Positions 32,742-55,771 of a stretch of 64,000 nucleotides of DNA are shown piece by piece. Under the pieces are notes generated by a model. It was given only the letters and a program-made list of their open reading frames with translations, made no database searches and had not been told where the DNA came from. The translations under genes were made by a program, and so were the position numbers. Location of the stretch: assembly GCA_030616165.1 (NCBI GenBank), contig JAUWXV010000001.1:17843-81842 (forward strand). The letters run 5' to 3'. Numbering within the stretch: position 1 is the stretch's first letter; each line of letters begins with the position of its first letter. This DNA comes from a bacterium. Its GTDB lineage: Bacteria > SM23-31 > JAUVVT01.

Positions 32742-32963
32742 ATGGAGGATGACATAACAGGAGAACCAGAAATAAATGTTGATGAACTAAGAAAAAGTGG
32801 CGTAGTAAAACTAAAAGATAAAGATATGTTTTTCCTATGGATTAAAACAACGTGTTCTAATCTAAACTCAAAGTGGTTGAGGAAACTCGCTGATAATGTA
32901 AAAGAAGAACTTGGCGAAGTTTATTTATCATTAGACCGCTGTGATGTGAATAGGAAAAGATAG
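32742..32963 (+). CDS. small hypothetical protein
   Basis: 73-aa ORF between cysK and the sulfite reductase gene; no recognisable motif. Confidence 0.3.
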   Translation: MEDDITGEPEINVDELRKSGVVKLKDKDMFFLWIKTTCSNLNSKWLRKLADNVKEELGEVYLSLDRCDVNRKR

Positions 32964-33027
32964 TAAGTATGCTGAACAAACATTCATAATGAAATCAATA
33001 AAGTTAATTGAATAATCAGGAGGAGAA

Positions 33028-33984: not shown

Positions 33985-34051
33985 TGAAGTTGCATATTGA
34001 GCGAAATATAGCTAATGATTATTATTAGAAAATATAAAAGGATTGTTAAAA

Positions 34052-34777
34052 ATGGAAAATAAAATTGAGCATGCCAAAAGATTGATTGAAGAGGCAATAA
34101 AAAACTATCCAAGGGTGGGGGTAGCATGCTCTTTTGGGAAAGACAGTATAGTAACGGTTCATCTGGCAAGAGAGGTAGACCCAAATATAGAGGTTTTCTC
34201 AATAATGACCCAGTACAAACCAAAAGAAACTTTTGAGTACCTCAGGTTAATGAATAAAAAGATGAATCTTAGAATCACTGTTTATATGGTAGCTGATAGC
34301 GTTCCGGAGGCTCTTAAGGATGGTTCTCTAAAAGTAAGACTGTTACCAACTGATGAATTTCACCAAAGAACATCTGAAATAAAGACTCAAACCGGCAAAA
34401 AAATTTATGAAATAAATCCGGATGAATGCTGCCGACTACTTAAAGTAGAGCCGGCCAAAGTAGCTGTGAGCAATCTTGACGCTTGGATATGTGGCTTAAG
34501 AAACACTGAAGGCAGAATAAGAGAAAATTATCAGGAAGTAGAAAATAAGGGTGGGCTTATCAAGATAAACCCAATTCTAACATTTACCGAAGCCGAGATA
34601 TGGAGATATATAGCCACCAGAGGTATTGAACCACATACCTGGTATAGGAAAGGTTATCGGTCTCTCGGCTGTGCGCCTTGCTCGCGAGCAGGAGGAGAAC
34701 TTGAGCGAGACGGTAGATGGAAAGATACAAGCAAATGTGGAGGGGAGTGCGGCATACACACTCAAATATTAAAATGA
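34052..34777 (+). CDS. cysH: phosphoadenosine-phosphosulfate (APS/PAPS) reductase
   Basis: PP-loop SFGKDS and C-terminal ...CGGECGIH (the CysH ECG[LI]H hallmark). Confidence 0.8.
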   Translation: MENKIEHAKRLIEEAIKNYPRVGVACSFGKDSIVTVHLAREVDPNIEVFSIMTQYKPKETFEYLRLMNKKMNLRITVYMVADSVPEALKDGSLKVRLLPTDEFHQRTSEIKTQTGKKIYEINPDECCRLLKVEPAKVAVSNLDAWICGLRNTEGRIRENYQEVENKGGLIKINPILTFTEAEIWRYIATRGIEPHTWYRKGYRSLGCAPCSRAGGELERDGRWKDTSKCGGECGIHTQILK

Positions 34778-35994: not shown

Positions 35995-36050
35995 TAAGAT
36001 TATATTAACAGAGCAAACAGAACTAAAAATAAATTTAAAAGTGGATTTGA

Positions 36051-36278
36051 ATGGAAAGCCACAAAAGAAGCATCATAAAAGCTATTACTTGGCGGGTTAT
36101 TGCTTCTCTAATTATATTCGTAATTGCTTATTTATTTACAAAAGAAGTAGTATTATCAGTGGGTATAGGCATTTCCGATACAATTGTAAAAATTGTTACT
36201 TATTACTTTCATGAAAGGATGTGGAATAAAATAGATTTTGGAAGAGAGAAAAGAGATGAAGAAGATTATTCGATATAA
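36051..36278 (+). CDS. small two-helix membrane protein (DUF2061-like)
   Basis: KAITWRVIASLIIFVIAYLFT...ISDTIVKIVTYYFHERMWN. Confidence 0.4.
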   Translation: MESHKRSIIKAITWRVIASLIIFVIAYLFTKEVVLSVGIGISDTIVKIVTYYFHERMWNKIDFGREKRDEEDYSI

Positions 36279-36332
36279 GGATTAAATCGAAATTGGTAGA
36301 GACTATTCGAATAATAAATACAGGAGAATAAA

Positions 36333-37001
36333 ATGAGAAGTCTTATGTTTAAGACATTGAAGGAAGATATTCAAACAGTTTTCAGTAAAGACCCGGCTGC
36401 CAAAAGCGTGATAGAGGTTATCTTTTGCTATCCTGGACTCCATGCCATTTGGATGAATAAAATTGCACATTTCTTCTGGATGCATAAGTTTCTCTTTATT
36501 GGAAGGTATATTTCCCATGTTAATCGCTGGCTGACGGGGATTGAGATTCACCCGGGAGCAAAGATTGGGAGAAGATTTTTTATTGACCATGGAATGGGAG
36601 TAGTAATAGGAGAAACTGCCGAGATTGGTGATGATGTTTTGCTTTATCAGGGCGTGGTTTTAGGTGGCAGAAGTTTCGAAAAGAAGAAACGGCATCCTAC
36701 TCTCGGAGATAATGTTGTTGTTGGAGCAGGGGCTGTTATTTTAGGTCCAGTAAATATCGGGGAAGGTGCAAAAATAGGGGCAGGGAGTGTGATACTTCAG
36801 GATGTTCCTTCGGGTGCAACAGCAGTTGGTGTTCCAGGGAAGATTAAAATGGGATTATCAGCTAAATTGATGGAGGATTTGGAACATGGGAAAATACCAG
36901 ACCCTATTTTCAGTACTATTCAGTTTATGATAGAGGAACAGGAAAAACTTGCAAAAAGGGTAAAAGTGTTAGAGTCTCAAGGCAGCAACTTTTCGAATTA
37001 G
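36333..37001 (+). CDS. cysE: serine O-acetyltransferase
   Basis: N-terminal SATase helical domain plus hexapeptide region [44 protein letters not shown]. Confidence 0.9.
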
Positions 37002-37074
37002 AAAAGAATTTGCAAAGAAAAAAAAAGGATAAAGAGAAGAAAAACTCTTAATAAAATAAAGTATCTGTATTATT

Positions 37075-37179
37075 GAGATTGCCACGCTTCATCCCCCCGC
37101 TGAAAGCAGGGGGACTTCGCTCAACACGATAAATTAACTGCAAAGAGAGGAGCGACGCCTGCGCAGGCGTGGCAATCTC
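37075..37179. mobile_element. about 105-bp MITE-like element with perfect 13-bp TIRs GAGATTGCCACGC/GCGTGGCAATCTC
   Basis: TIRs read directly. The right end GGGGGATGAAGCGTGGCAATCTC is shared with the 23584-23640 element. Confidence 0.55.
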
Positions 37180-37248
37180 ATACAAATTTGCAAATGTTTT
37201 GTAATTTAAAAAAATAACAAGGATTTTATCTTTTTAACAGACTAAATA

Positions 37249-38430
37249 ATGAAAGATAAATTGAAATCGTCAACCAGGTGTGTTCACTATGGTGAGAATA
37301 GAAAAGAACCGTATTATTCTGTTATCACACCAATTGTCAATTCGGCTCCATATAGATTTAGTTCCAGCAAAGAATTATTGGATTTTGTTACAGGTAAATC
37401 ATCAAGAACCCAGCCAGAATATGGGCGAATGGGAAATCCCACGGTTACATCCGTTCAGGAAAAACTTGCAAGGTTAGAGGGTGGGAAAAATGCACTGCTT
37501 TTTGCAAGTGGAATGTGTGCAATTACGACAGCATTATTTGTACTTTTGAAAAAGGGTGATCATATTGTCATAACCAATGATTCATACCGTCGGACAAGAG
37601 ACTTTGTTTTAAATTTTCTTCCAAAGTTCGGGATTAAATCAACAATAACAAAATCGACTTCATCTGATATTAAGAAAGCATTAAGGAAAACAACAAAAAT
37701 AATCTTTTCAGAATCCCCGACAAATCCTTACCTTCATGTTTTAGATTTGAAAGCAATTGCTGATATTGGAAAGCAGAATAATATTATAACTATTATAGAC
37801 AGCACTCTTGCCACTCCTGTAAACCAGAAGCCATTACAATATGGGATTGACCTTGTCATACACTCGGCTACAAAGTATTTGGGAGGGCATAACGACCTGA
37901 TTGCAGGCGTTTTAATTGGTTCAGATAAACTGGTTCAGCCGATTGCTGAATTATTAATGACCATAGGAGGTATTTGTGACCCCAATACGTCGTATTTAAT
38001 CGAAAGAGGTTTAAAAACGCTCGATTTGCGAGTAAAAAGACATAATGAAAATGGGCAAAAAGTAGCACAATTTCTTGAGAAGCATCCAAAAGTTTTAAAG
38101 GTTTTTTATCCGGGTTTAAAAAGCCATCCAGACCATAAGATTGCAAAACGTCAAATGAAAGGATTTGGAGGATTACTTTCTTTTTTACTCCAAACCGATT
38201 TTAAGGGAGCAATGAAATTTATTGATAGCTTAACAATTCCCCAGATTGCTCCAAGTTTTGGTGGACCCGAATCGCTTATTGAACAACCTGCGCTGATGTC
38301 TTTTATGGATATCAAAAAAAAGGAAAGGGAGAGAATAGGAGTTTTTGATAATTTAGTACGATTATCTCTCGGTCTTGAGGACAGTGAAGATATCATCGAA
38401 GACCTGAAGAGAGGTCTGGAAAAACTATAG
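37249..38430 (+). CDS. Cys/Met-metabolism PLP enzyme (cystathionine gamma-synthase/beta-lyase/O-acetylhomoserine sulfhydrylase family)
   Basis: IHSATKYLGGHNDLIAGVL (PLP-lysine motif), NPT N-terminal motif. Confidence 0.85.
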   Translation: MKDKLKSSTRCVHYGENRKEPYYSVITPIVNSAPYRFSSSKELLDFVTGKSSRTQPEYGRMGNPTVTSVQEKLARLEGGKNALLFASGMCAITTALFVLLKKGDHIVITNDSYRRTRDFVLNFLPKFGIKSTITKSTSSDIKKALRKTTKIIFSESPTNPYLHVLDLKAIADIGKQNNIITIIDSTLATPVNQKPLQYGIDLVIHSATKYLGGHNDLIAGVLIGSDKLVQPIAELLMTIGGICDPNTSYLIERGLKTLDLRVKRHNENGQKVAQFLEKHPKVLKVFYPGLKSHPDHKIAKRQMKGFGGLLSFLLQTDFKGAMKFIDSLTIPQIAPSFGGPESLIEQPALMSFMDIKKKERERIGVFDNLVRLSLGLEDSEDIIEDLKRGLEKL

Positions 38431-41320: not shown

Positions 41321-42829
41321 ATGACAAGGAAATTGCCACCCTTATTGTTAAATCCTATTAGTTTAATAGGGATTCTTATTGCTTTGACCAGTTTCATTGC
41401 CATTATAATTCTCTTTTTTGCTCATATTTTTTTAGCACCTGATAATCCATATATTGGAATAGTCACTTACCTGATTTTCCCAATCTTTTTAATAATAGGA
41501 TTACTTATAATTCCCTTCGGTATGTTTATTGAGAGACGGCAACAATTAAAAAGAAAAGGAATAAAAGAACGGCGTCTTCCAATTATCGATTTTAACCAGC
41601 AAGATCAGAGAAACGCTTTTATACTCTTTTTGATAGTTTTAATTATTTTTATGATATTGAGTGCTGTTGGAAGTTACAGAGCTTATGTTTTCACCGATTC
41701 AGTAGTTTTTTGTGGGAAAATCTGCCATTCTATAATGCATCCTGAATATATTACTTACATGGAGAGCCCTCATGCCCGGGTGTCATGTGCTGAGTGTCAT
41801 GTTGGAACAGGAGCCAACTGGTATGCCAAATCAAAGCTTTCCGGTGCATATCAGGTTTATGCTACAATAGCACAAAAATATCCTAAGCCTATTCCAACAC
41901 CTATCAAAAATTTACGACCAGCTCAGGAAACCTGTGAGCAGTGTCACTGGCCAGGGCAATTTTTTGGTGGGAAACAGAAAATATTTACTTATTATTTAAG
42001 TGATGAAGAAAACACCAAGTATGAAATTAATATGTTAATGAAGGTTGGTGGCGGAAATCCAAAATCCAGTAGAACTTCGGGTATTCACTGGCATATGAAT
42101 ATTCAGAATAAGATAGAATTTATATCAACGGATAATAAAAACAAAATTATTCCTTGGATTCGTTCTACTAACCTATTAACTGGGGAAGTAAAAACATTTA
42201 CTGATGAAGAGAACCCACTATCAGAAGAATTATTGTCAAAGAGTAAGCCTCATGTAATGGATTGTATGGATTGTCATAACCGACCAACTCATATCTTTAA
42301 GTCTCCAAGTCTTTCCGTTAATGAAAAAATTCTATTAAATCGAATTAATAAATCATTACCTGAGGTTAAATATATATCTGTTGAACTTCTTTCAGATGAT
42401 TATGAAACAACTGATATTGCAGTGAACACAATTGCCGAAGAGATTTGGAAATTTTACAGAGAAAATTATCCCAAGGTTTTTGAAAAGGAAAGGGATAGTA
42501 TAAAACAATCAATCAGAGAATTGCAGGAGATTTATCAGAGGAATATTTTTCCAGAAATGGGTGTAAAGTGGTCAGTTTATCCTGACCACATTGGACATCT
42601 TGATTTCCCGGGTTGTTATAGATGTCATGATAATAAACATATTACGGAATACGGAGACCGACTGGCGAATGATTGTAATCAATGTCACACAATTTTGTCG
42701 CAGGAGTTTGGAGGCGAAAAAGAAGAGACTCTCGACCCAAAAGGAATAAAATTTAAACATCCAGTTGATATTGGAGATGACTGGAAATTAGTAGGATGCC
42801 ATGAATGTCATACAGGATTAAATCCTTAA
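41321..42829 (+). CDS. inner-membrane heptahaem c-type cytochrome, ImcH-like (NapC/NirT-related quinol dehydrogenase)
   Basis: Three N-terminal TM helices. Seven haem motifs (CGKICH, CAECH, CEQCH, CMDCH, CYRCH, CNQCH, CHECH). Confidence 0.7.
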   Translation: MTRKLPPLLLNPISLIGILIALTSFIAIIILFFAHIFLAPDNPYIGIVTYLIFPIFLIIGLLIIPFGMFIERRQQLKRKGIKERRLPIIDFNQQDQRNAFILFLIVLIIFMILSAVGSYRAYVFTDSVVFCGKICHSIMHPEYITYMESPHARVSCAECHVGTGANWYAKSKLSGAYQVYATIAQKYPKPIPTPIKNLRPAQETCEQCHWPGQFFGGKQKIFTYYLSDEENTKYEINMLMKVGGGNPKSSRTSGIHWHMNIQNKIEFISTDNKNKIIPWIRSTNLLTGEVKTFTDEENPLSEELLSKSKPHVMDCMDCHNRPTHIFKSPSLSVNEKILLNRINKSLPEVKYISVELLSDDYETTDIAVNTIAEEIWKFYRENYPKVFEKERDSIKQSIRELQEIYQRNIFPEMGVKWSVYPDHIGHLDFPGCYRCHDNKHITEYGDRLANDCNQCHTILSQEFGGEKEETLDPKGIKFKHPVDIGDDWKLVGCHECHTGLNP

Positions 42830-42910: not shown

Positions 42911-44137
42911 TTATTGAGAAGATTCCTTTGCAATAGAAGACAGAGGTGTTGTTGCAGCTTCAGGCCATGGCGGAAGGATTTTTATGATTATATACAATAC
43001 GAATAGTGGAAGAAATAATAATGCAATGGATATCAAAAGACCTTCGATTCCTAAAAGTTCCATCTTATAATGGGTTAGTCCTCGAAGGCTTTTCGAGAAT
43101 AATTGACCACCTATCACGACGTTCCACCTTGTGCTGAATATCCCAATTTGAACTAAAATTGCCGCTCCAAAATAGATTAACCTACGTAACTCATCGGGGA
43201 GCCGGAATAGTTTTACAGATGCTAATGAACCCAAAGGCAGTAAAGTTCCCAGGAGTATTTGAATTACAACAAGACTTATAAACAATTTTTGTGATATCAA
43301 CTGGCCTAAAATGTGGATGGATTCAACAGACTCATACATCCGGTGGATAAAATCCAGGGTCTCGAGAGAAATATCAAGTATCATCGCATACAGCAGAAAT
43401 GACGCCAGTTTGTCCATGCATGCCATATCGATTGGTTTCCAACGAAAAAGGGTTGTTACACCATATATCAGGATCATCAACGCGATTCCTGAAACAATAG
43501 CCGAAAACAGAAATACAATAGGCATCAACACGCTGCTCCACCAGGGATTTGCCTTCACGGAGCCAAAAATAAAACCTACATATCCATGCAGTAAAAATGC
43601 TGACGGGATACCGATTATGGTAATAAACTTTCCTGCTTTACGGTCAAATCGTATTGCCTTTTCGGACAGGTCCAGTGAGCCTAATGAAAGAAGATAGTAC
43701 ATATACTTTCGCCATCCTTTTTTACTCCGAGCCCAATAAACGATGTCCTTCCTATAATCAAACCATATTTCGAGCATTAACACTATCATCAAGTACCAGG
43801 CGTAAACAAATCCGAACATTGCCATTGCTGACTTTAATTGAGGAGTGAGAAAAATTTCAATTGACCGTTCGGGGTAACTAAGGTGTGCAAGGAGCGGAAG
43901 TGGGGCTATGATCAGAAATGCCAGCGCAGTCAACATAGACAGGCGGTATGTAGGTTGAACTTCTTTTACTTCAAAAACACGCTCCAGTGAAGCAAGGATG
44001 AATGCCCCTGCGACAAGCCCTGTGATATATGGATATACGACTATCAAAATCCCCCAATGGAGTTCCACCTCGTTTGGATAAATATACCCAACCACTTGTT
44101 TTAAGATTGGCTGTAGTTGTTCGATTAAATTTTCCAT
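42911..44137 (-). CDS. NrfD/PsrC-type polytopic quinone-interacting membrane subunit
   Basis: About 10 TM helices with NrfD-like organisation; 2 bp downstream of the FeS subunit gene. Confidence 0.75.
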   Translation of the reverse strand: MENLIEQLQPILKQVVGYIYPNEVELHWGILIVVYPYITGLVAGAFILASLERVFEVKEVQPTYRLSMLTALAFLIIAPLPLLAHLSYPERSIEIFLTPQLKSAMAMFGFVYAWYLMIVLMLEIWFDYRKDIVYWARSKKGWRKYMYYLLSLGSLDLSEKAIRFDRKAGKFITIIGIPSAFLLHGYVGFIFGSVKANPWWSSVLMPIVFLFSAIVSGIALMILIYGVTTLFRWKPIDMACMDKLASFLLYAMILDISLETLDFIHRMYESVESIHILGQLISQKLFISLVVIQILLGTLLPLGSLASVKLFRLPDELRRLIYFGAAILVQIGIFSTRWNVVIGGQLFSKSLRGLTHYKMELLGIEGLLISIALLFLPLFVLYIIIKILPPWPEAATTPLSSIAKESSQ

Positions 44138-44139
44138 AA

Positions 44140-44898
44140 TTATCTCACTTCCCCATCCAAGTTAGCGTAATAAATTTTTGGTTCCGTATTAAGATGAGGT
44201 TTCAGAACCTGGACTTTGTTGAAACGCATGAATCGGGCTAATAGGCTGCTGCGCAAACCGATCTCGCCAAATATCCTCGCTTCGGTTGGACAAACTTCAA
44301 CACAAGCGGGCTTTAGACCCCGGGATAAACGATGATAGCAGAATGTACATTTTTCCGCCGTACTGGTCACAGGGTTAAGAAACCTTGCTCCGTACGGACA
44401 TGCCTGAATACAATAACGACACCCGAGGCAGTAATCTTTATCGATCAATATCACTCCATCCTTAGTGATAAATGTAGCACCTACCGGACATACCTGCACG
44501 CATGGTGGATTAGCACACTGGTTGCACAATTTTGGCACAAAGAAGGTCCGCATGATCTCATTTTCGGCAACCATTTCAGGAAAACCCTCACTTCCCCCAT
44601 TTGGGCTATCAACCTGTGCTGTCCCATCAATAAGAATTATGTACCGCTCAACCCAAGTCCGGAAAAAGAATGGTTCACGAGGTACATCATTTTCCCGCTT
44701 ACATGCATCTACACACTGTCCACAACCGATGCACTTGTCGACCTGAATTCCCATCCCGTATTGATGTATTGGTTCATTATCATTTGATGAATCAGAATCT
44801 TCTGAAGCAGGAGACCCGAATAATAACAGTACGGTTCCTACAAGTGTGCTTTCCCGTAGAAACTCTCGGCGATTCATCAATTCACGTTTCTTTTTCAT
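44140..44898 (-). CDS. Tat-exported 4x[4Fe-4S] ferredoxin subunit (NrfC/PsrB/DsrO-like)
   Basis: MKKKRELMNRREFLRESTLVG Tat signal. Four CxxCxxCxxxCP clusters. Start set at ATG 44898 (ATGA overlap with the upstream cytochrome stop). Confidence 0.85.
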   Translation of the reverse strand: MKKKRELMNRREFLRESTLVGTVLLLFGSPASEDSDSSNDNEPIHQYGMGIQVDKCIGCGQCVDACKRENDVPREPFFFRTWVERYIILIDGTAQVDSPNGGSEGFPEMVAENEIMRTFFVPKLCNQCANPPCVQVCPVGATFITKDGVILIDKDYCLGCRYCIQACPYGARFLNPVTSTAEKCTFCYHRLSRGLKPACVEVCPTEARIFGEIGLRSSLLARFMRFNKVQVLKPHLNTEPKIYYANLDGEVR

Positions 44899-45764
44899 CA
44901 GCGCACCTCCGGATAATGTGGATAATGACATTGCCAGCACGCATGATCAGGCTCATGTGACTGAAGGTCCACCCGCGGTATTTCCCCGGCACTTTCTGCA
45001 TTTTCTCCATGACAACCACCGCAAAATGTTCTCTTCCGTGGTTTACTGGGACGAAATGACCGGGGATCTTTTTTATGTGCTTCAGGAGCAGAGTGACACT
45101 GGGTACACTCCAGGGCAGCATGGTGTGAGACAGCTTTTGTCCGCGCAATTTCCCCGTGACATGCTCCACATTCCTCAGGGGGTTGCGGAGGTTTGGGATC
45201 ATGGGGTTCGTGACAAGACATACAGGGTTCTAAAGGATTATGTGTGACTATATTAATTTGGGGGAATCCCGTTGGCTTGGACGCATTATATATATGACAG
45301 AGGGGACATAAACCCCGCTGACGTGGAGCCGAAGGAGTATTTTCGCTGGGATCCTCAACATGGTTTGCACCTGGCCCATGGCATACTTCGCAGGCAACAT
45401 TCTGATGATAAGATGTTTGTTTTAACGCTACATATTCATCGTGACACTCTGAACACGCTTCCTGCCCAGCATAATGGATTGGAAGAGCTAATATAGAATC
45501 TATGGCAGCTGCTCGGTAGTGTCCCTCTTTTACAAAGGTGGGCGGCATTAAGTAATTCCGGACGGTAATGAGCATTATCACTAAAATAATAAAAATAATA
45601 AGTAAGCGTTTTATTTGGTCTGGAAAAGGAATTGATTTCCAGCCCGGCATTCTTAATTCTGGACGAAATCGAAAATTTAACATGTTTTTTGTCTGAATCA
45701 GCTTTTTAATATCAATTAAGTAATGAAAAACGAGATAATGAAAAATTTCATGGAATTTTAACAA
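44898..45764 (-). CDS. membrane-anchored octahaem c-type cytochrome
   Basis: TM helix LLIIFIILVIMLITV. Eight CxxCH motifs (CSECH, CEVCH, CPLCH, CMSCH, CGACH, CTQCH, CGGCH, CWQCH). The true start is probably an internal Met. Confidence 0.8.
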   Translation of the reverse strand: MLKFHEIFHYLVFHYLIDIKKLIQTKNMLNFRFRPELRMPGWKSIPFPDQIKRLLIIFIILVIMLITVRNYLMPPTFVKEGHYRAAAIDSILALPIHYAGQEACSECHDEYVALKQTSYHQNVACEVCHGPGANHVEDPSENTPSAPRQRGLCPLCHIYNASKPTGFPQINIVTHNPLEPCMSCHEPHDPKPPQPPEECGACHGEIARTKAVSHHAALECTQCHSAPEAHKKDPRSFRPSKPRKRTFCGGCHGENAESAGEIPRVDLQSHEPDHACWQCHYPHYPEVR

Positions 45765-46047: not shown

Positions 46048-46110
46048 TTGACTTTTTTAAAAAAAAATTATATTATTAAGAAAAATTTCATACTTAATAA
46101 CCAAACGATA

Positions 46111-46551
46111 ATGGAAGAGAGAAACACATCAAGAAAGAGTTTTATTAATTACCTGTTAGGCGGTGGTTTTACTCTTGTCGCAGCTTCTTTCTTATATCCA
46201 ATAGTGAGGTTCGTGCTCCCTCCAAAATCGACCGAAGCAGAACCTATGGCAGTATCTGCTGGCAAGGTTGGCGAGATGCATTTAAATTCTGGGAAGATAT
46301 TTAAATTTGGAAGAAAACCTGGTCTGCTTATTTATACAGAACAGGGTGAATATCAGGCATTTATGGCAACCTGTACACATCTTGACTGCATTGTGCAATT
46401 CCGAAATGATTCTGAAAGCATCTGGTGTGCTTGCCATAATGGATATTATGACCTTAATGGAAATAATATATCTGGTCCGCCCCCAAGACCCTTAGAAAGA
46501 CTGAATGTTTTTATAAAAGATGATGATATAATGGTTTCAAAAATTACTTAA
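46111..46551 (+). CDS. Rieske [2Fe-2S] iron-sulfur protein
   Basis: CTHLDC...CACHNG Rieske boxes and N-terminal TM/Tat-like anchor. Start at ATG 46111. Confidence 0.85.
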
Positions 46552-46552
46552 A

Positions 46553-47626
46553 ATGAAGACCTACACAACCAATCTCATTAATTGGCTTGATAAAAGATAC
46601 AACATAAAAGAAATAATAGGATTTATTACAGAAAAGAAGGTCCCTATTTACAAACACACTATCTGGTATTATATGGGAGGGATAACCCTTCTTTTTTTTA
46701 TCATTCAGGTTTTAACTGGCATACTTCTTCTTCTCTATTACCGACCTACTCCTGAGGAGGCATTTGAAAGTGTTCAATTTATTATGACACAGGTTCACTA
46801 CGGATGGCTTATCCGCTCTATTCACAGTTGGTCAGCAAATCTTATGATTCTTTTTGCATTTATACATATGTTCAGTGTATTACTCCTGAAATCTTACAGA
46901 CCTCCACGTGAACTAACATGGGTAACCGGTGTGCTGTTAATGTATATATCTCTTGCTTTTGGCTTCACGGGTTATCTCCTTCCGTGGAATGAATTGTCCT
47001 TTTTTGCCACAAAAGTTGGTACTGACATAGCGGGAGTTATTCCTTTTATTGGAAAATTCATTATTAGATTCCTGAGAGGTGGAGAAGACGTTACAGGAGC
47101 GACCTTGACGAGACTCTTTGGATTTCATGTTGCTGTCCTTCCAGGAGTAATCATTGTGATTTTGGTTATACATTTATTGATGGTTCAACGACAGGGAATG
47201 AGCAAACCGATAGGCTTAAAAGAAGTGAAGAAGGGGATGCTATTTTTCCCGGACTTTTTTTTAAGAGACCTTTTAGGATGGCTATTTGCAGTTGGGATTC
47301 TTGCAGCTCTGGCTGCTATCTTTCCCTGGGAACTGGGGCAGAAGGCAGACCCATTTTCATCTGCTCCAGAAGGCATCGCGCCTGAATGGTATTTTTTATT
47401 TATGTTTCAAACATTAAAATTCTTCCCCGCAAGAATATTAATTTTAGACGGCGAAGTGATTGCAGTCTTTATTTTCGCAGCACTCGGAATATTCTGGATT
47501 CTAATCCCATTTCTTGATACTAAAGCCAGAAGGGAACAAAAAAGCCCGATATTTACAACTATAGGTATTTTTGCAATTCTATACGTGGGGATAATTACTA
47601 TACTTTCTTATTTTGTATTTAAGTAA
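46553..47626 (+). CDS. cytochrome b (fused b6/subunit IV-type) of a Rieske/cyt b complex
   Basis: [38 protein letters not shown] (haem-ligating His helices), PEW motif region. Confidence 0.9.
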
Positions 47627-48933
47627 TGTATTCGCATAATCTTATGAAAAATATTATTAGACATTTCAACATTATTTACATACTATTTTTATTTATTTTT
47701 CTCTTCCCCGCTATATATTTATTTCCACAAGAAAGGCACAATAATTGTATCGAATGCCACAGTAAATTCGAAGAAGAAGAGACATCGCCAACCATTGAAT
47801 TTAAAAATGATATCCATAATACAAGTGGTATGTTATGTTCTGACTGTCATGGTGGAGACCCGGAAATAAATGCAGGTGGAAATCAAGAACTTGCTATGAA
47901 TCCTAAAAAAGGATATAAACCACCTCCGGGTCATAACGAAATCCCCGAATTCTGTGCAAGATGCCATTCTGATTTTGAATATATGAAAAAATTTAATCCC
48001 AATATAAGAGTAGACCAATATGAAAATTATTTAACAAGTCAACACGGGAAATTACTGGCAAAGGGAGATGATAAAGTAGCTAATTGTGTTAGTTGTCATA
48101 AAACCCACGGGATTCGAAAAAAAACAAACCCTGCCTCAGCCGTTTTTGCAAACAAAATTCCGGAAACTTGTAGTAAATGCCACTCAGACCCGGAATATAT
48201 GAAGGAATATAAAATCCTGACTAACCAGTTGGAAATGTATAAAAAAAGTGTTCACGGGGAATTTTTATTGGAAAAAGGGGACTTAAATGCTCCTGCTTGC
48301 AATGACTGCCACGGAAATCACGGTGCCGCTCCCCCGGGTGTCGAATCTGTACACAATGTCTGCGGAGTATGTCACTCAGGAAATAATCAGTTGTTCTTAA
48401 AAAGTTCTCATAAAAAATACTTTGATGAATTTGGCTTTCCAGAATGTGCATCATGTCATGAACATCATTTAATAAAAAAACTTACAGAAGAATCTCTCGG
48501 GGTTGGAGACCAATCTGTTTGCGGAATTTGTCATACACAAGAAGATGAAGGAGGTATAATCGCTGTTGAAATGAAAAATATTATCGAAAATTTTTCTGCA
48601 CTGCGGGATACTTGCCAAATATTGTCCGAAGAGGTAGAAAGGAAGGGTATGCCCGTTAATGAAATAAAATACCAGATGAACAATGTTGACTCTGAACTGT
48701 TAAAAGCAAGAAATATAGTGCATAGTTTTTCTCTGGAAAATATAAAACAAATAACTGAAGAAGGAACAAAACTTGCCATCTCTGTAAAAAAAATGGCAAA
48801 TGATGAATTAAAAGAATATCAAATTAGGAGAATAGGACTGGCTGTCTCGCTTTTCTTTATTTTTTTAGCGGGAACCGCCCTCTATTTGAAAATCAAGAAG
48901 ATAGACAAAAAAAATATAATAAATTCTTTTTAA
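47626..48933 (+). CDS. nonahaem c-type cytochrome with N- and C-terminal membrane anchors (cytochrome c subunit of the Rieske/cyt b complex)
   Basis: Nine CxxCH motifs. C-terminal TM IGLAVSLFFIFLAGTALYL. 1-bp overlap with the cyt b stop. Confidence 0.8.
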   Translation: MYSHNLMKNIIRHFNIIYILFLFIFLFPAIYLFPQERHNNCIECHSKFEEEETSPTIEFKNDIHNTSGMLCSDCHGGDPEINAGGNQELAMNPKKGYKPPPGHNEIPEFCARCHSDFEYMKKFNPNIRVDQYENYLTSQHGKLLAKGDDKVANCVSCHKTHGIRKKTNPASAVFANKIPETCSKCHSDPEYMKEYKILTNQLEMYKKSVHGEFLLEKGDLNAPACNDCHGNHGAAPPGVESVHNVCGVCHSGNNQLFLKSSHKKYFDEFGFPECASCHEHHLIKKLTEESLGVGDQSVCGICHTQEDEGGIIAVEMKNIIENFSALRDTCQILSEEVERKGMPVNEIKYQMNNVDSELLKARNIVHSFSLENIKQITEEGTKLAISVKKMANDELKEYQIRRIGLAVSLFFIFLAGTALYLKIKKIDKKNIINSF

Positions 48934-49298
48934 CTATAAATTGATGGTATAACAAATTTAAAAATAAAATCTTAAAATTTTGTGCACTTAATCAGAGATG
49001 CAATATATAAGTTTCAGAAAAAATATTTGACAATTAAAAATATTTTGTTATATTATCATAATATATAATTAATATAATTATTATAATCAATATATTTTAT
49101 ATCTTTTCAATACCTAAATCGAATAATTTTAATTATTTATATAAATATTTCTTTCTGGTATAAATATGATAAAAATGCTGAAATAATATGCGTAAATACC
49201 TAATTCTCTGTTCTTCTATTACCTATTTTTTTAATCCAAATTCTCATATAAAATAATTTTTATAAATATGAGAATAGAATTTTTATTAGGAGGATTCA

Positions 49299-52076
49299 AT
49301 GAAATCAAGACTTTTAGCTTTAATTGCGATAAGTATTCTCAGTATGTTTATAATCAAAATATTAATTGCCCAAAGTTCTGAACCAACTGCAAAGATTAAA
49401 CTCGATTTTGTTACCTCGCATAAGATTGACGTTGATACGGCTTTGACATCCACAGGGAAAGCCTCAGGGCTGAATAATGTAGGTGTCGGTGAAACTGTTT
49501 ATCCGGTGGGTGTTGCTACCGGTACGAATATTACTTATCAGTGGTCTATTGATGGACCGACAGGTTCTTCAGCAACTTTAAGCAGTACTATCGAAGACAG
49601 TATACACTTTCAGCCGGACGTAGAAGGGATTTATATATTAACTCTCACGGTTACTGCTGATGAAGGAACAGCAACTTCCTCAATCAAGGTTCAGGCGGCG
49701 AAATATATAGGTGTTGGAAAAATTGATGGTCTTAAGTCTGAATTTCCTCAGTGTGGCATAGGATGCCATTATACTATTTATGACAAATGGATTCAAACAG
49801 GACATGCTACAGCATTCAGCAGGAAACTGGATGAAGAAGGCGGACATTTCGGTTCAAATTGTATAGATTGTCATTCAATAGGTTATAATACACTTACTAA
49901 TGCGGTTAATAATGGATTTGATGATATAGCAAGTAGCCTTGGATGGACCTTCCCTGATACCTTAAAATCGGGAAATTGGCAGAATATGATAAACAATTAT
50001 CCCTCACTTGCCCAGAGAGCAAATATACAATGTGAAAATTGCCATGGTCCAGGCAGCGGTCATAATTTTAAAGATGGTCCAATTGAAGAATCCGGTATCG
50101 GTAAGACCTATGAGCCTGGTATTTGTGCATATTGTCATGATGCTCCTACTCACCATGTGTATTTTCCTGAGTGGGAAAAAAGCGGTCATAATACAGTAGA
50201 TGATCACATGAATAGTTCATCATGTGCCAAATGCCATACAGGGAAGGGTTTTGTAATCCAAAATATAAGAGGTGAGGCATCTGAAGCACCTTATGTTGAG
50301 GGTGCGGCTGTTACTTGTGCAGCCTGTCATGACCCTCACGATGCTACAAATGAACATCAATTACGGAAAGTTTCGAATGTTACACTTAATGATGAAACAA
50401 CAGTGGTTTCTGAAGGAGGATTGGGAAAACTTTGTATGAACTGCCATCTTTCAAGAAGAGATGCAGAAGAATATGTAACTAAATATCATAGTCATTTTGG
50501 CCCTCATCACTCGAATCAAACAGATATGTTAGTTGGTGCAAATGCTATAGAGTTCGGGCTCTCCATGCCGGAGACTGGACATATCAAAGCAGTTGAAGAT
50601 GCTTGTGTCACATGTCACATGGCAGAACAGCCAAAAGAAAATAAAGATGAAGGTATATCCAAGGTTGGTTCGCATACTTTCAGTATGGTTAGCACCGTTG
50701 GAACTGATACAACTTACAATGTTGAGATATGTCAGGGCTGTCACGGCAGTGAAATTGAAAAATTTGAAGATGTAAAAGCATCTTCGGATTATGATGGTGA
50801 TGGCACGATAGAAGGAGCTGTAGCGGAAGTTGAAGGTTTAATGCATCAATTGGGAATGCTTCTTCCACCATTAGATGAGCCTGGAGTTTCTGTAGCTAAA
50901 GATTATACTCCTGTACAGCTTAAGGCTGCGTATAACTATGAATTCGTTGATGATGATGCAAGCCATGGAGTTCACAATACATCTTATACAGTTGCAATTT
51001 TGAAGGCTGCAATTCAGGCAATTTCTACTGGAGATATTGGAGCGGGCAGTATTATAGCAATTGATGATGTTCCTAACGACCAGGGGAAACAGGTACGAAT
51101 ACGTTGGAATCGTTTTTCGGGAGATGGAAAATTAGACAATCCTATTGGGAAGTACGGAATATGGCGGCGTATCGATGATATGAGTTTGGCAAAGAATGCT
51201 AATACTGTTTCATCTTATGAGGATATGTTCAATAGTCTGGAAAAAATTTCTGAAGGAAGTCAATTCGTGGTCACTGAAAGCGGAGAACTCTGGGATTTTG
51301 AAAAAGAAGTCTCTGCAGTCGGGGAAGACAAGTACAGCACAATTACTGCTACGCTTTTTGATTCTACAATTACAGATGGCATGCACTGGTCTGTTTTTTA
51401 CATTTCTGGTCATTCACTCGAAGGTGGATTAGTTGTGAAATCTGCTGTGGACAGTGGTTATTCAGTTGATAATTTGGCACCTGCAGTACCTGTTCTAAAG
51501 ATAGCATCAAAAACAGCCGGTATGGTTACTGTAGAATGGGATGCTCCTGTGGATGAGGACTTCAAATACTTCAATGTATATCGGGGAACAGAGCAGGGGT
51601 TTGACCCTGCGACTGTTGAGCCAATTTTGAGAAGGGTAGATGCTGAATTCACCGAAAATCTTTCTGCTGTTGGTGAAAAATATTATTACAGGATTAGTGC
51701 TGTGGATTTCAGTGGGAACGAATCAGGATTTTCACTGGAAATTTCTGAGGATAACGTAATAACCAGTCTTGAACTTGGTAATATCAGTAGTATCCCAGGA
51801 AAGTTCGCTCTGGAACAGAATTATCCGAACCCATTTAACCCGATAACACATATACGTTATCAACTGCCAAAAAGTACTAATGTCACTCTACATATATATG
51901 GTATCACCGGTAATCTGATTCGTACTCTTGTCAGCGAATACCAGCACCAAGGTTTTATAGAGGTTGAATGGAATGGAAAGGATGATTTTGGTAGCTCGGT
52001 AGCATCTGGAATTTATATTTATAGAATTACAGCAGGGAAGTTCTCGGATAGCAGAAAAATGATTCTCATAAAATAA
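49299..52076 (+). CDS. secreted nonahaem c-type cytochrome with beta-sandwich region and T9SS C-terminal sorting domain
   Basis: Signal peptide. Nine haem motifs (CGIGCH, CIDCH, CENCH, CAYCH, CAKCH, CAACH, CMNCH, CVTCH, CQGCH). C-terminus LEQNYPNPFNPITHIRYQLPKSTNVTLHIYGITGNLIRTLV...GIYIYRITAGKFSDSRKMILIK matches the Por/T9SS CTD consensus. AGGAGG RBS. Confidence 0.8.
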   Translation: MKSRLLALIAISILSMFIIKILIAQSSEPTAKIKLDFVTSHKIDVDTALTSTGKASGLNNVGVGETVYPVGVATGTNITYQWSIDGPTGSSATLSSTIEDSIHFQPDVEGIYILTLTVTADEGTATSSIKVQAAKYIGVGKIDGLKSEFPQCGIGCHYTIYDKWIQTGHATAFSRKLDEEGGHFGSNCIDCHSIGYNTLTNAVNNGFDDIASSLGWTFPDTLKSGNWQNMINNYPSLAQRANIQCENCHGPGSGHNFKDGPIEESGIGKTYEPGICAYCHDAPTHHVYFPEWEKSGHNTVDDHMNSSSCAKCHTGKGFVIQNIRGEASEAPYVEGAAVTCAACHDPHDATNEHQLRKVSNVTLNDETTVVSEGGLGKLCMNCHLSRRDAEEYVTKYHSHFGPHHSNQTDMLVGANAIEFGLSMPETGHIKAVEDACVTCHMAEQPKENKDEGISKVGSHTFSMVSTVGTDTTYNVEICQGCHGSEIEKFEDVKASSDYDGDGTIEGAVAEVEGLMHQLGMLLPPLDEPGVSVAKDYTPVQLKAAYNYEFVDDDASHGVHNTSYTVAILKAAIQAISTGDIGAGSIIAIDDVPNDQGKQVRIRWNRFSGDGKLDNPIGKYGIWRRIDDMSLAKNANTVSSYEDMFNSLEKISEGSQFVVTESGELWDFEKEVSAVGEDKYSTITATLFDSTITDGMHWSVFYISGHSLEGGLVVKSAVDSGYSVDNLAPAVPVLKIASKTAGMVTVEWDAPVDEDFKYFNVYRGTEQGFDPATVEPILRRVDAEFTENLSAVGEKYYYRISAVDFSGNESGFSLEISEDNVITSLELGNISSIPGKFALEQNYPNPFNPITHIRYQLPKSTNVTLHIYGITGNLIRTLVSEYQHQGFIEVEWNGKDDFGSSVASGIYIYRITAGKFSDSRKMILIK

Positions 52077-52184: not shown

Positions 52185-53288
52185 ATGAGTACGAATAAAT
52201 TACGAAAGTTATTACTGTGTATCTCATTAATAGGATTAGGAGCATTCTCATGCAGTGAGTTAGATATTAATAATCCTTTAACATATATAAATGATAAAAT
52301 ATCTTATGAAAAAGATATAAAACCTATTTTTGCGAATAGATGTATAGATTGTCATAGTGGAAGTTCGCCTGCAGGAAATTATAACCTTTCTTCCATATTA
52401 ACGATTATGGGGAACGGTACAGACTTGAAACCGAATGTAATTATCGGAAGTCCATATAGTCTTCTTCTGATGAAGATTATTATAGGGGACGATAACCACC
52501 GTGAGTGGATAGGCTCTGAAGAAAACACTCAAAAATTGTATAAATGGATAGTTGAGGATAGTTTGAGCATCAGTGAGCCGATTGTGCATCTTGCTGGACC
52601 TATGGATGTGGATTCACCAAATTTTCATGGACAGGATATTAGAAATAAAGCGTGGTCTATGGAATCATGTAAGCTCTGTCATGGAACTGACTATAATGGG
52701 GGTTCCTCAGAGGGTTCCTGTAACAAATGTCACGATCCAAACCCGGAGGAATGCACTACTTGTCATGGTTTTGGTATGCTTGATAATCATTTGGGAGCAC
52801 CACCTCCTGATCTGAGTAACAACATCGAGACTTCTTTTAGAGGAGTTGGCGCTCACACAATACACATGACAGAGGGCGATAATTCCGATGGTATTGAATG
52901 TGAATCCTGTCACATTGTTCCCCAAAATTTGTACGATGATGGTCATATTTTTTCTGAAGAGCCTGCAGAAGTTGTTTTTAGTTATCTTGCACATAATTTA
53001 GGAGCAGAACCAATCTGGGACACTGAAACCCTGACCTGTAAAGATGTTTACTGTCATGGAAATTTCCCTTCAGGAAACAAGGAGAATGCTCCAAAATGGA
53101 CTGGCTTTGATCCGAATCCACCGAGTTGTTCTCCTGCCTGCCACCAGTTTCCTCCTGTTGGTAAAACACGAACCGGTTTTAAACACTCTCCCAGTGTTTC
53201 TCAATGCTGGTACTGCCATTCCAATCTTGATAATAAATATAATTTTATTGATAAGTCAACTCATATTAATGGAATTATTGAAAGATGA
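52185..53288 (+). CDS. octahaem c-type cytochrome, probable lipoprotein (OmaB-like periplasmic component)
   Basis: Signal peptide ending GAFSC. Eight haem motifs including CxxxCH/CxxxxCH variants (CIDCH, CKLCH, CNKCH, CTTCH, CESCH, CKDVYCH, CSPACH, CWYCH). Confidence 0.7.
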   Translation: MSTNKLRKLLLCISLIGLGAFSCSELDINNPLTYINDKISYEKDIKPIFANRCIDCHSGSSPAGNYNLSSILTIMGNGTDLKPNVIIGSPYSLLLMKIIIGDDNHREWIGSEENTQKLYKWIVEDSLSISEPIVHLAGPMDVDSPNFHGQDIRNKAWSMESCKLCHGTDYNGGSSEGSCNKCHDPNPEECTTCHGFGMLDNHLGAPPPDLSNNIETSFRGVGAHTIHMTEGDNSDGIECESCHIVPQNLYDDGHIFSEEPAEVVFSYLAHNLGAEPIWDTETLTCKDVYCHGNFPSGNKENAPKWTGFDPNPPSCSPACHQFPPVGKTRTGFKHSPSVSQCWYCHSNLDNKYNFIDKSTHINGIIER

Positions 53289-54580
53289 ATAAACTCATAA
53301 GTGTTAAAATTATTTTGTTATATTTAATCTTTACAATTCTGCCATTATATGAGAATTATGGTCAGGTTATTACGGGAAGAGTGTCATCGTATATGTACAG
53401 CTGGCAAATTCAGGACCAACAGTCAGGTTCCTCTGAACATATTCGTTTGTATCAAACCCTTGTTATGAATGTTAAAAATGTTGGGAGCCCAAAAGTCTCT
53501 TTGCATACCAATATACGCTATACGAAGGACTTCATTAATGATAGCGATTACAATCACAATTGGAAATTTCAATATTTTTATGGACAGGTAAAAAAGGTTC
53601 TTCAAGTAGCAGATATTAAATTTGGTCGGCATTATGTATATTCTGGCGTTGGCAATGGTTCAATTGACGGGATTTCTACAAAGATAAAAGTAAAAGAAAT
53701 TGCTGATTTTGAATTTTATGGCGGAATGCCTGTTTCATGGTATCATGAAATAAAGGTCCAGAAATGGAACGAGAGTAGAATGTATGGATTACGAATACAG
53801 CCGAGAATGTTCTTGAATACATTGGTGAGTATAAGTTATGTTCAAAAAAAGATGAATCCCCTCCCTTATAAGATTCCTGGGAAGTTTACTTTCAAAAAAT
53901 GGGATATAACTTCTGATGCAGTGGAATTTGTTGGATTGGATTTCTATACTCAATGGTCTGAAAAAACGAGCGCGTATGGCCGCCTCGATTGGGATATGAC
54001 GTATGATGACATTTATCGGATAAATTTTTATTATAACAGGTCGCTCTTCAATAAATTTTCTCTCAGTGCTGAATACTACTATAGAAAACCGCGGATTTAT
54101 AATAATTCGATTTTTAGTGTGTTTGCTCAGCACGATAACCGAGAATACTGGTTTCGAATTTATTATAATATTAAAGAAAATCTGTCTGTATCCGGCGGAA
54201 CATCAATTGTTATTTATTCGGGAGATAAGGGATATCGACATAATGTAAGTATATATTCAAATCGTTTTAGTATTGGCTATAATCATACAAGCGGTTACAG
54301 CGGTAGATTGGATGGATTAACAGGAAGCGTTAATTATCCGATAAGAAATAATATATGGCTGAAGGGCGGTACAAATATTTCACGATACAAGCTGTTTGAA
54401 CATCTTGAAGACTTTGAAAATGTGTTAAGTACGTTTGCAGGAATTTCAATAATGCCCAAAAAAACTTGTACGCTGGATATCGAAGGGCAGGGATTACATA
54501 ATTATAATCACAGCAGTGATTTTCGGATACTTTTGAGAGCTAACTGCTGGTTTTCATTTGGTAAAATACGGAAAAATTAA
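53285..54580 (+). CDS. outer-membrane beta-barrel (porin-like) protein embedded between cytochrome genes
   Basis: Signal peptide. Dyad-repeat beta-strand pattern, aromatic girdle residues, no Cys/haem motifs. 4-bp overlap with the upstream cytochrome gene. Confidence 0.55.
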   Translation: MNKLISVKIILLYLIFTILPLYENYGQVITGRVSSYMYSWQIQDQQSGSSEHIRLYQTLVMNVKNVGSPKVSLHTNIRYTKDFINDSDYNHNWKFQYFYGQVKKVLQVADIKFGRHYVYSGVGNGSIDGISTKIKVKEIADFEFYGGMPVSWYHEIKVQKWNESRMYGLRIQPRMFLNTLVSISYVQKKMNPLPYKIPGKFTFKKWDITSDAVEFVGLDFYTQWSEKTSAYGRLDWDMTYDDIYRINFYYNRSLFNKFSLSAEYYYRKPRIYNNSIFSVFAQHDNREYWFRIYYNIKENLSVSGGTSIVIYSGDKGYRHNVSIYSNRFSIGYNHTSGYSGRLDGLTGSVNYPIRNNIWLKGGTNISRYKLFEHLEDFENVLSTFAGISIMPKKTCTLDIEGQGLHNYNHSSDFRILLRANCWFSFGKIRKN

Positions 54581-54592: not shown

Positions 54593-55771
54593 ATGACACA
54601 TGTGAAAATAATCAAAACTGTTAAATGGGTTTTTTTCTTTTTTATTGTTTATTATGGAAGTTATTACTCTATAATTGCTGCTCAAAAAAATTCTATTATT
54701 TTTTCTCATAAACTGCATATCGAAGATATAGGAGCAGAATGTGTTGATTGTCATTCAACCATCCCGGAAAGTCAGGAAATGGATGATAAAAATCTACCAA
54801 AACATGAAGAATGCTTTATGTGTCATGATGATGATATAGCATCTCAAAAATGCGGTACTTGTCATTCTGATCCGGATAATCCCGAACCGTTGGAAAATCC
54901 AATTCGTGAATTTTATTTCAACCATGTATTTCATATCAAGGAACAAAATATGGAATGCGATAATTGTCATCAGGGATTGGAAAAAGTTGACTATGCACAG
55001 AAAGAAAATCTCCCGAGTATGGAACAATGTTATCAATGTCATGATGGTGTGACAGCATCGCAAAGATGTGAAGATTGTCATACACCTACAGCTCGCCTGA
55101 TTCCAATGACTCACACCCCTGACTGGAAATTAATTCATAAGCATTCATCAAATTTAATAGAATCAGAATGCATGACATGCCACCAAGAGAATTATTGTGA
55201 AGATTGTCATACGGGAACACGATTGCTGGAAATTGGAAATGAAGATAAAGACTATGTTAATCCCAACATTCCTTCGAGTGAAGGGAAAAAGAATATGGTT
55301 CTTCAAAGGGTGCATGAACTTAATTATCGTTACACACATGGAATTGATGCTAACGATAAAAAACTGAATTGTTCTTTTTGCCATCAAGAAACACAATTTT
55401 GCGTTAGATGTCATCAAGAAGAAGAAAAGATAAATATTTTAAAACCTTCCTGGCATTCAGGACCGGAATGGGGTGCTATTGTTGAAGCAGTGGGTTCAGG
55501 GGGAGGAAGGCATGCTCGGCTTGCCAGGAGAGACATTGAAAGATGTGCAGCCTGCCATGATTCACAGGGAGAAGACCCTGTTTGTCTTATGTGTCATAGA
55601 GATTTTCTTCCAGGAAGAGGAAATGATTTAAGAACACATTTTATAGGAATGTTTTCTGGGGCAGGAGAGGGAGCATGGCATGTTGATGAAGGTTCTATAT
55701 GTTTTAATTGCCATGTAAATTCTATGACACCCGGTGTGGGATTTTGCGGATACTGTCATAGCATCAAATGA
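54593..55771 (+). CDS. 14-haem c-type cytochrome (OmcB-like outer component)
   Basis: N-terminal signal/anchor; 14 CxxCH motifs in 392 aa. Confidence 0.8.
   Translation: MTHVKIIKTVKWVFFFFIVYYGSYYSIIAAQKNSIIFSHKLHIEDIGAECVDCHSTIPESQEMDDKNLPKHEECFMCHDDDIASQKCGTCHSDPDNPEPLENPIREFYFNHVFHIKEQNMECDNCHQGLEKVDYAQKENLPSMEQCYQCHDGVTASQRCEDCHTPTARLIPMTHTPDWKLIHKHSSNLIESECMTCHQENYCEDCHTGTRLLEIGNEDKDYVNPNIPSSEGKKNMVLQRVHELNYRYTHGIDANDKKLNCSFCHQETQFCVRCHQEEEKINILKPSWHSGPEWGAIVEAVGSGGGRHARLARRDIERCAACHDSQGEDPVCLMCHRDFLPGRGNDLRTHFIGMFSGAGEGAWHVDEGSICFNCHVNSMTPGVGFCGYCHSIK

Follow-up and report, generated by a model that had tools for sequence, protein, structure and literature searches.

How are multihaem cytochromes placed at the cell surface in diderm bacteria outside Proteobacteria and Desulfobacterota? 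To our knowledge, this is largely unknown, and a gene in the 64,000 nucleotides analysed here (the window; contig JAUWXV010000001.1, positions 17,843 to 81,842 of the forward strand) raises the question directly. This open reading frame (ORF) runs from ATG to stop at window positions 49299..52076 on the plus strand and encodes a 925-amino-acid (aa) protein, in which a nonahaem cytochrome c module is followed by a C-terminal domain (CTD) of the type IX secretion system (T9SS). A first-pass annotation had noticed the combination and predicted export across the outer membrane (OM) and surface anchoring. As judged from its sequence, its relatives and its gene neighbourhood, the protein is probably exported by the T9SS and displayed at the surface, where it would act as the terminal oxidoreductase of an electron conduit of the porin-cytochrome type.

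The cytochrome ends in a T9SS sorting domain

Conservation was assessed in an alignment of 30 full-length relatives, on which an AlphaFold2 (AF2) model with a mean pLDDT of 76.9 was also built. The parts of the protein are as follows.

49299..49370, plus strand: Sec-type signal peptide, about residues 1-24, MKSRLLALIAISILSMFIIKILIA followed by QS (sequence and hydrophobicity, by inspection)
49389..49700, plus strand: PKD/Ig-like beta-sandwich, residues 31-134 (domain scans and AF2)
49731..51038, plus strand: nonahaem cytochrome c module of the OcwA/OmhA type, residues 145-580 (homology and AF2)
51051..51464, plus strand: beta-sandwich with a helical insert, residues 585-722, stalk part 1 (AF2 secondary structure)
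51477..51752, plus strand: fibronectin type III-like domain, residues 727-818, stalk part 2
51753..51812, plus strand: flexible linker, residues 819-838 (pLDDT and conservation)
51813..52073, plus strand: T9SS type A CTD, residues 839-925 (TIGR04183, PF18962 and AF2)

The annotation had matched about the last 85 residues (EQNYPNPFNP...KMILIK, residues 839-925) to the sorting-domain consensus, and it had proposed the hidden Markov models (HMMs) TIGR04183 and PF18962 as a check, with non-recognition as a ground for refutation. Both models recognized the C-terminus, so this ground falls away. With TIGR04183 the score is 38.2 bits (cut-off 23; E = 1e-9; residues 842-922 of 925), and with PF18962 it is 28.0 bits (gathering score 27; E = 2.7e-6). 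The FlgD_ig family PF13860 overlaps the same region with 38.4 bits against 27. TIGR04183 is matched by all 30 aligned relatives, and mean column identity is 0.57 in the CTD versus 0.59 in the haem module. The motifs of type A CTDs are kept, namely NYPNPFNP, GxYxY (G904-x-Y906) and a terminal K-x-x-x-x-K. Residues N841, P843-P848, T850, G871 and G904 are invariant, K920 and K925 are at least 90% conserved, and the ending [KR]xxxx[KR] is found in 30/30 sequences.

The model gives the CTD six long beta-strands (residues 850-856, 860-868, 873-882, 885-891, 904-912 and 915-923), with block-mean pLDDT values mostly of 79-90 and of 69 at the far C-terminus. The PorU CTD of 6za2 matches the domain both by sequence profile and by Foldseek, and further matches are the PorZ CTD and the CTDs of T9SS-dependent peptidases. 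As the curated models pass their thresholds and the domain is conserved in 30/30 relatives, its assignment as a T9SS CTD stands well beyond chance.

In characterised T9SS cargo, the CTD is cut off directly upstream of the domain, and by inference a putative cleavage site may lie here in the linker of residues 819-838. Residues 819-830 have pLDDT values below 50, and the linker has a mean column identity of 0.49, only the signal peptide being less conserved. The value for stalk part 1, 0.56, is comparable to that of the rest of the protein. At the other end, the signal peptide has a basic n-region (K2, R4) and a hydrophobic run to residue 24, without a lipobox cysteine; the region is modelled as a helix (residues 2-25). 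In the PKD/Ig-like domain, residues 72-132 match PF22352 and PF00801 slightly under their gathering scores, and the PKD domain of KIAA0319L is a PDB profile match of the region. The pLDDT of this domain is 89-95 at residues 61-130 and 71-82 in the part before.

The haem module is of the OcwA/OmhA type

All 18 cysteines of the protein fall in nine haem-binding motifs, with eight CxxCH at residues 188, 245, 276, 309, 340, 379, 436 and 478 and a CGIGCH (CxxxCH) at residue 152. The nine haem sites are invariant in the alignment; at the site of residue 152, 19/30 relatives have CxxCH and 10/30 have CxxxCH. Because most relatives have CxxCH there, the longer motif represents a homologous haem site rather than a defect. 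The term nonahaem used in the first-pass annotation thus agrees with the count of nine motifs, with the qualification of a three-residue spacer at the first site. A catalytic CxxCK or CX15CH motif is absent from the 925-aa sequence.

OcwA of Thermincola potens (6I5B) and OmhA of Carboxydothermus ferrireducens (6QVM) were identified as homologues of the haem core by both sequence and fold, including the C-terminal helical bundle. In our model, the haem module is largely helical and closes with a three-helix bundle (residues 507-521, 538-553 and 558-577). By homology, we assign the module to the OcwA/OmhA clade of the NrfA/c554/MccA multihaem superfamily. Both OcwA and OmhA reduce Fe(III) minerals. 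Gavrilov et al. grouped OcwA with nonahaem proteins of Gram-negative bacteria, whose architecture is undescribed there.

OcwA has two open-coordination (penta-coordinate) haems and low nitrite and hydroxylamine reductase activity. Its distal pair H281/H282 aligns with H285/H286 of the protein, and H286 is 93% conserved. The OcwA pair H380/H381 may correspond to H403/H404 (H403 invariant), with a two-position offset in the HMM alignment; the AF2 model contains no haems. Nine conserved non-motif histidines had suggested that all nine haems have bis-His coordination. This interpretation was dropped, since by OcwA homology at least H286, and probably H403/H404, look like non-ligating distal residues.

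Membership of the MtrC/OmcA decahaem family, raised by a match to PF22113, was also rejected: ten haems, an N-terminal lipobox and the domain arrangement of MtrC were not found in the protein. Residues 155-283 (49761-50147) match the C-terminal region of NCBIfam NF041198, 'UshA-like (seleno)protein'; the match is present in 30/30 family members, with scores far under the model cut-off.

A redox module joined to a surface-display cassette

A word-indexed search returned more than 1,600 relatives of the CTD cytochrome. Domain PF18962, PF13860 or PF13585 is precomputed on about 110 of the best 120, and several relatives, from Calditrichaeota, KSB1, Melioribacteraceae and Rhodothermia, bear the NCBI name "T9SS type A sorting domain-containing protein". 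In an exhaustive search of 50%-identity representatives, the totals were inflated by giant Fn3/PKD/CTD repeat proteins and are unusable as a family size, and the architectures of the best 150 clusters were taken instead. The complete architecture through the CTD occurs in 24 of these clusters, and the PKD-plus-haem module alone (about 600-800 aa) in even more. A genome-collection scan was dominated by the generic NYPNPFNP pattern and returned one full-length relative, in the locus that we call L001 (other loci are numbered in the same way).

The two halves of the protein also occur apart. The haem module (about residues 6-580), with nine CxxCH and other C-terminal extensions but no CTD, is found in metagenome-assembled genomes (MAGs) labelled Myxococcaceae, Limnocylindrales and Thermoanaerobaculia; relatives of the module outside the FCB group are without the stalk-plus-CTD cassette. 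The stalk-plus-CTD block (residues 580-925) ends haem-free proteins in Marinimicrobia, KSB1 and other MAGs, namely an M6 peptidase, a beta-helix/PKD protein, a CarboxypepD_reg protein and an FG-GAP protein. A GH26 enzyme in L085 carries the same cassette, and stalk part 1 is also present on non-haem CTD proteins of L005, L006, L008 and L009. Since the haem module and the stalk-plus-CTD block each occur apart, the cytochrome reads as an OcwA-type redox module to which a generic cassette for surface display has been fused, one that ordinary secreted proteins of these phyla also carry.

Two loci hold variants of this arrangement. In L003 (10001-14186) there are two tandem paralogues of the nonahaem module, and the scanned copy (765 aa) is without a CTD and has a bacterial TSP3 repeat in its C-terminal extension. 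In L084 of Calditrichaeota (12990-16871), the family member is separated by a Fur-family regulator from another nine-haem cytochrome, which has CBM9/EB_dh-like domains and a T9SS CTD. Because this second cytochrome differs in its domains, CTD-tagged cytochromes occur in more than one family.

The gene is linked to a predicted conduit

The CTD-cytochrome gene probably heads an operon with the genes of a 367-aa cytochrome, a beta-barrel and a 14-haem cytochrome. Its expression signals and the downstream genes are listed here.

49027..49054, plus strand: sigma-70-like promoter match, TTGACA, 16-nt spacer and TATATT with a TG extension (11/12 positions)
49288..49293, plus strand: Shine-Dalgarno AGGAGG, 5 nt 5' of the ATG (read from the sequence)
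52185..53288, plus strand: 367-aa multihaem cytochrome with 6 CxxCH, 1 CxxxCH and 1 CxxxxCH
53285..54580, plus strand: 431-aa predicted OM beta-barrel of 22 strands (predicted structure; no Pfam family)
54593..55771, plus strand: 392-aa periplasmic cytochrome with 14 CxxCH, c7-type repeats and a signal peptide

The promoter match is the best in the 365-bp AT-rich gap 5' of the CTD-cytochrome gene; it is a match to the consensus only, and promoters of FCB-group bacteria may differ. The start of the 367-aa cytochrome resembles a lipoprotein signal by inspection (LIGLGAFS followed by C), and this protein is a candidate outer-face partner of the barrel. The 14-haem cytochrome matches Pfam Cytochrome_C7 with 72.7 bits, its PDB matches are c7-like domains and ActA of ACIII, and it is a candidate for the wire threaded into the barrel. 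The barrel has about 37 detectable relatives without Pfam or other annotation, one of them in the cultured Rosettibacter firmus. The barrel family appears to be undescribed and specific to cytochrome clusters of FCB-group bacteria.

Upstream of the promoter lie several genes for proteins that could feed electrons from quinol into such a conduit.

41321..42829, plus strand: 502-aa NapC/NirT-like membrane cytochrome with 4 predicted transmembrane (TM) segments, 6 CxxCH and 1 CxxxCH (PF03264)
42911-44137, minus strand: NrfD-like membrane protein (NCBIfam, TM count)
44140-44940, minus strand: NrfC-like 4Fe-4S protein (NCBIfam)
44898-45764, minus strand: 8-haem cytochrome (haem count)
46048-46551, plus strand: Rieske protein (Pfam)
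46553-47626, plus strand: cytochrome b (Pfam)
47626-48933, plus strand: 9-haem cytochrome with a C-terminal membrane anchor (haem and TM counts)

The Rieske/cytochrome b/9-haem trio (46048..48933) is predicted to form a complex of the bc type that oxidises quinol and includes a multihaem subunit; the membrane-anchored 9-haem cytochrome takes the place of cytochrome c1 after the Rieske protein and cytochrome b. The 8-haem/NrfC/NrfD trio (42911..45764) is likewise read as a second quinone-interacting module, and its NrfC-like protein has a twin-arginine-like leader, NRREFLRES. The NapC-like protein, a candidate quinol dehydrogenase, is unusually large for a NapC/NirT-like cytochrome and has a weak match to NrfH (E = 5e-4).

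The linkage persists in other genomes, KSB1 and other MAGs, where the CTD cytochrome is only 39-41% identical. In L081 of KSB1, the gene order is CTD cytochrome, barrel (29% identity, E = 2e-48), 14-haem homologue and 367-aa homologue. In L086, the CTD cytochrome is followed by another cytochrome, the barrel (E = 4e-47) and the 14-haem homologue (38% identity, E = 7e-88), and then by genes for a Rieske protein, cytochrome b (split over two genes), a 9-haem cytochrome, a NapC-like protein and Ccm proteins. The opposite strand of L086 carries a trio of multihaem cytochrome (MHC), NrfC and NrfD, and an MHC-NrfC-NrfD-like trio is also found near the cytochrome cluster of L087. In a pairwise comparison, the L086 cytochrome that occupies the slot of the 367-aa cytochrome showed no homology to it past the haem motifs.

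All linked components lie inside 11 kb in L001. Orthologues of the 14-haem cytochrome (32-40% identity) adjoin the barrel gene in L001, L081, L086 and L087, and homologues of the 367-aa cytochrome are present in the same clusters of L001, L081 and L087. NapC-like orthologues (43-45% identity, 44-45% in L084 and L085) directly adjoin the CTD cytochrome in L001, L084 and L085. Among the loci examined, the NapC-like protein is the commonest direct neighbour of the CTD cytochrome.

Taxonomic placement

The annotation had also taken the CTD as a strong pointer to the FCB superphylum. No rRNA, tRNA or Rfam marker was found in the 64-kb window, and for this reason MetK similarity is the one basis of the taxonomy. 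The best named MetK relatives (67-69% identity) come from KSB1, Zixibacteria, Calditrichaeota, LCP-89 and Bacteroidetes; closer relatives have 77-99% identity. In the genome-collection scan, this type of CTD was seen mainly in the FCB group and allied phyla. In a broad sense, therefore, the pointer is borne out, both by the MetK relatives and by the phyletic spread of the CTD.

Proposed pathway

We propose that the 925-aa protein would be exported by Sec and receive its nine haems from the Ccm system in the periplasm. Its CTD would then be recognized by a T9SS translocon of the SprA/PorV type, which would move the folded holo-protein across the OM, and the protein would be held at the surface on its stalk. 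Electrons from quinol may enter through the NapC-like protein, the Rieske/cytochrome b/9-haem complex or the MHC-NrfCD module, and would pass to the 14-haem periplasmic cytochrome, through the barrel and on to the surface nonahaem cytochrome. The acceptor would be insoluble or extracellular, for example Fe(III) or Mn(IV) oxides, humic substances or a partner cell. Electron uptake may use this wiring in the opposite direction.

An extracellular role is backed independently of the CTD, because of the homology to OcwA and OmhA and the conserved linkage to an OM barrel and a periplasmic cytochrome. With the CTD and the signal sequence, these observations argue for the predicted export across the OM, and passage through a SprA-type translocon is a reasonable inference. 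The annotation had called this an unusual fate for a multihaem cytochrome. Surface location in itself is not unusual for such proteins; it is the T9SS route that is unreported.

The other half of the earlier prediction, surface anchoring, fares less well, and several observations weigh against the proposal as a whole. None of the T9SS machinery (SprA, PorV, PorU, PorZ, GldK-N) is encoded in the 64-kb window, and a search of its six-frame translation with the CTD HMM found no second CTD protein. Among T9SS proteins, only SprA, PorV and Plug are reported for Melioribacter and Ignavibacterium of the Ignavibacteria (PMC11705866), and the gliding machinery of Bacteroidetes was not found in the Caldithrix abyssi genome (PMC5317091). 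Outside Bacteroidota, the T9SS set may thus be incomplete. Since these reported sets are reduced, anchoring by sortase and A-lipopolysaccharide (A-LPS) is speculative, and the PorU/A-LPS step is the weakest of the pathway. The haem domain is modelled with moderate confidence (pLDDT 56-91), and given the side activities of OcwA a catalytic role of the module may also be considered. Finally, in the cultured Rosettibacter firmus, homologues of the barrel, the 14-haem and the 367-aa cytochromes occur without a CTD cytochrome nearby. Because of this, the CTD protein is better seen as an add-on to a porin-cytochrome core than as an obligate part of it.

Alternative interpretations

The architecture and export could be as proposed and the flow of electrons inward, the surface cytochrome taking them from Fe(II), a reduced mineral, a cathode or a syntrophic partner and passing them by way of the barrel to the Rieske/cytochrome b complex. 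The position of Rieske, cytochrome b and a multihaem subunit directly upstream, co-conserved in L086, would fit this direction, and porin-cytochrome systems work both ways (Shi et al. 2014, PMC4245776). However, the closest characterised homologues, OcwA and OmhA, reduce Fe(III) minerals, and genes for a terminal oxidase, carbon fixation or reverse electron transport were not seen in the window. We therefore consider inward flow unlikely.

It may also be that the protein is exported by the T9SS and then released, so that it would either shuttle electrons by diffusion outside the cell or become bound to the matrix. Release is the fate of many T9SS cargo proteins, OmhA is weakly cell-bound and was found on the mineral product, and sortase components were not detected in Ignavibacteria (PMC11705866). 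Release is nevertheless doubtful in our view: the redox module and the CTD are set apart by a conserved stalk about 240 residues long, which fits display at a fixed distance from the membrane better, and the gene is tightly linked to those of a membrane-embedded conduit.

A further possibility is that the CTD is not a working T9SS signal but an Ig fold of the FlgD type with a structural or adhesive function, the cytochrome being periplasmic or brought to the surface otherwise, e.g., by the type II secretion system. PF13860 does outscore PF18962, which passes its threshold by just 1 bit, T9SS genes are missing from the window, and the T9SS sets of Ignavibacteria and Caldithrix are reportedly incomplete or absent. 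Yet TIGR04183 is exceeded by 15 bits and matched by all 30 relatives, and the domain always forms the C-terminal end, always finishing with K/R-x-x-x-x-K/R. It also matches the CTDs of PorU, PorZ and T9SS-dependent peptidases, the identical cassette is found on typical secreted proteins (the M6 peptidase, and GH26 in L085), and a SprA-PorV translocon is present in Ignavibacteria (PMC11705866). On balance, a non-functional CTD seems quite improbable.

Similarly improbable is a mainly enzymatic role at the surface or in the periplasm, as an NrfA/ONR/MccA-like reductase of a soluble nitrogen or sulfur compound (nitrite, hydroxylamine, sulfite, tetrathionate or polysulfide): it would suit the NrfA/c554/MccA/OcwA superfamily, the two penta-coordinate haems of OcwA with their slow nitrite and hydroxylamine reduction, the HH pair H285/H286 aligned with that distal to OcwA haem 2 and the sulfur-assimilation cluster 10-18 kb upstream, but the CxxCK/CX15CH catalytic motif is absent, the nitrite activity of OcwA is far lower than that of true NrfA, and linkage to a barrel and cytochromes together with a surface stalk is unexpected for a reductase of soluble anions.

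Export by the T9SS and display at the cell surface as the end of an outward conduit thus remains our preferred interpretation of the 925-aa protein. Whether it can be extended is an even call: the T9SS, possibly in a reduced SprA-PorV form, would be a dedicated surface route for haem-loaded cytochromes in KSB1, Calditrichota, Ignavibacteriota, Rhodothermia and allied uncultured lineages, a role that type II secretion has in Shewanella, and the window would encode a complete, undescribed extracellular electron-transfer pathway with a barrel of a new family.

Other genes of the window

Three further regions were noted. A cluster for sulfur assimilation and cysteine/methionine metabolism (30800-38430) includes genes for thiazole synthase, two cysteine synthases, a sulfite-reductase-like protein, PAPS/APS reductase, serine acetyltransferase and a cystathionine gamma-synthase family enzyme. 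The minus-strand genes at 6698-14916 resemble the clusters of Actinobacteria for cell-wall growth and signalling; they encode a Ser/Thr kinase with TPR repeats, FtsW/RodA, a PBP2-type transpeptidase and two FHA-domain proteins. Three ORFs of 470-485 aa on the minus strand (15566-17005, 24077-25489 and 26146-27603) are without a Pfam match at E <= 1e-5.

Significance and comparison with known systems

Hot springs and iron-rich sediments commonly harbour Ignavibacteria, Calditrichota and KSB1. Porin-cytochrome (Pcc-type) clusters are already known in Ignavibacteria (PMC4245776, PMC6137239). In a full-text literature search, no paper on multihaem cytochromes or on extracellular electron transfer was found that also discusses the T9SS (type IX secretion); the sole co-mention of T9SS and "extracellular electron transfer" was in an unrelated vesicle review. 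The combination of T9SS and cytochrome is also unmentioned in the KSB1 and Caldithrix genome papers. The ingredients, namely T9SS CTDs, OcwA-type cytochromes and porin-cytochrome conduits, are known, and family members already bear automated T9SS-cargo labels; the combination is undescribed.

The locus is of interest because the redox module of Gram-positive metal reducers is fused here to a T9SS display cassette of a generic kind and coupled to a conduit with an OM barrel. If our interpretation is correct, cofactor-loaded respiratory proteins would join the known cargo of the T9SS. An OcwA-like module together with TIGR04183 would become a sequence marker for electroactive FCB-group bacteria in metagenomes. 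It would also follow that the surface anchoring of electron-transfer cytochromes evolves through the exchange of lineage-specific sorting modules.

Like the T9SS cargo of Bacteroidota (gingipains, SprB, glycoside hydrolases and peptidases), the protein has a signal peptide and an Ig-like CTD of about 85 residues. It differs from them in that its passenger is a redox protein with nine covalent haems and its host lies outside Bacteroidota. In contrast to OcwA and OmhA, it belongs to a diderm host, has an N-terminal PKD/Ig-like domain, a stalk of about 240 residues and a T9SS CTD, all absent from those two proteins, and has CxxxCH at its first haem site. It is encoded together with an OM barrel conduit, which would be needless in a monoderm.

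The gene layout is like that of the Geobacter Pcc (OmbB-OmaB-OmcB) and Shewanella MtrCAB/OmcA systems, with a barrel, a periplasmic cytochrome, a lipoprotein-like candidate for an outer-face cytochrome and an additional surface cytochrome, and it likewise comes with quinol-oxidising cytochromes. The likeness is one of layout; the barrel here has 22 predicted strands and no Pfam family. The type II system brings MtrC and OmcA, both lipoproteins, to the surface, whereas the outermost cytochrome here has no lipobox, belongs to an OcwA-like fold family and carries a T9SS signal.

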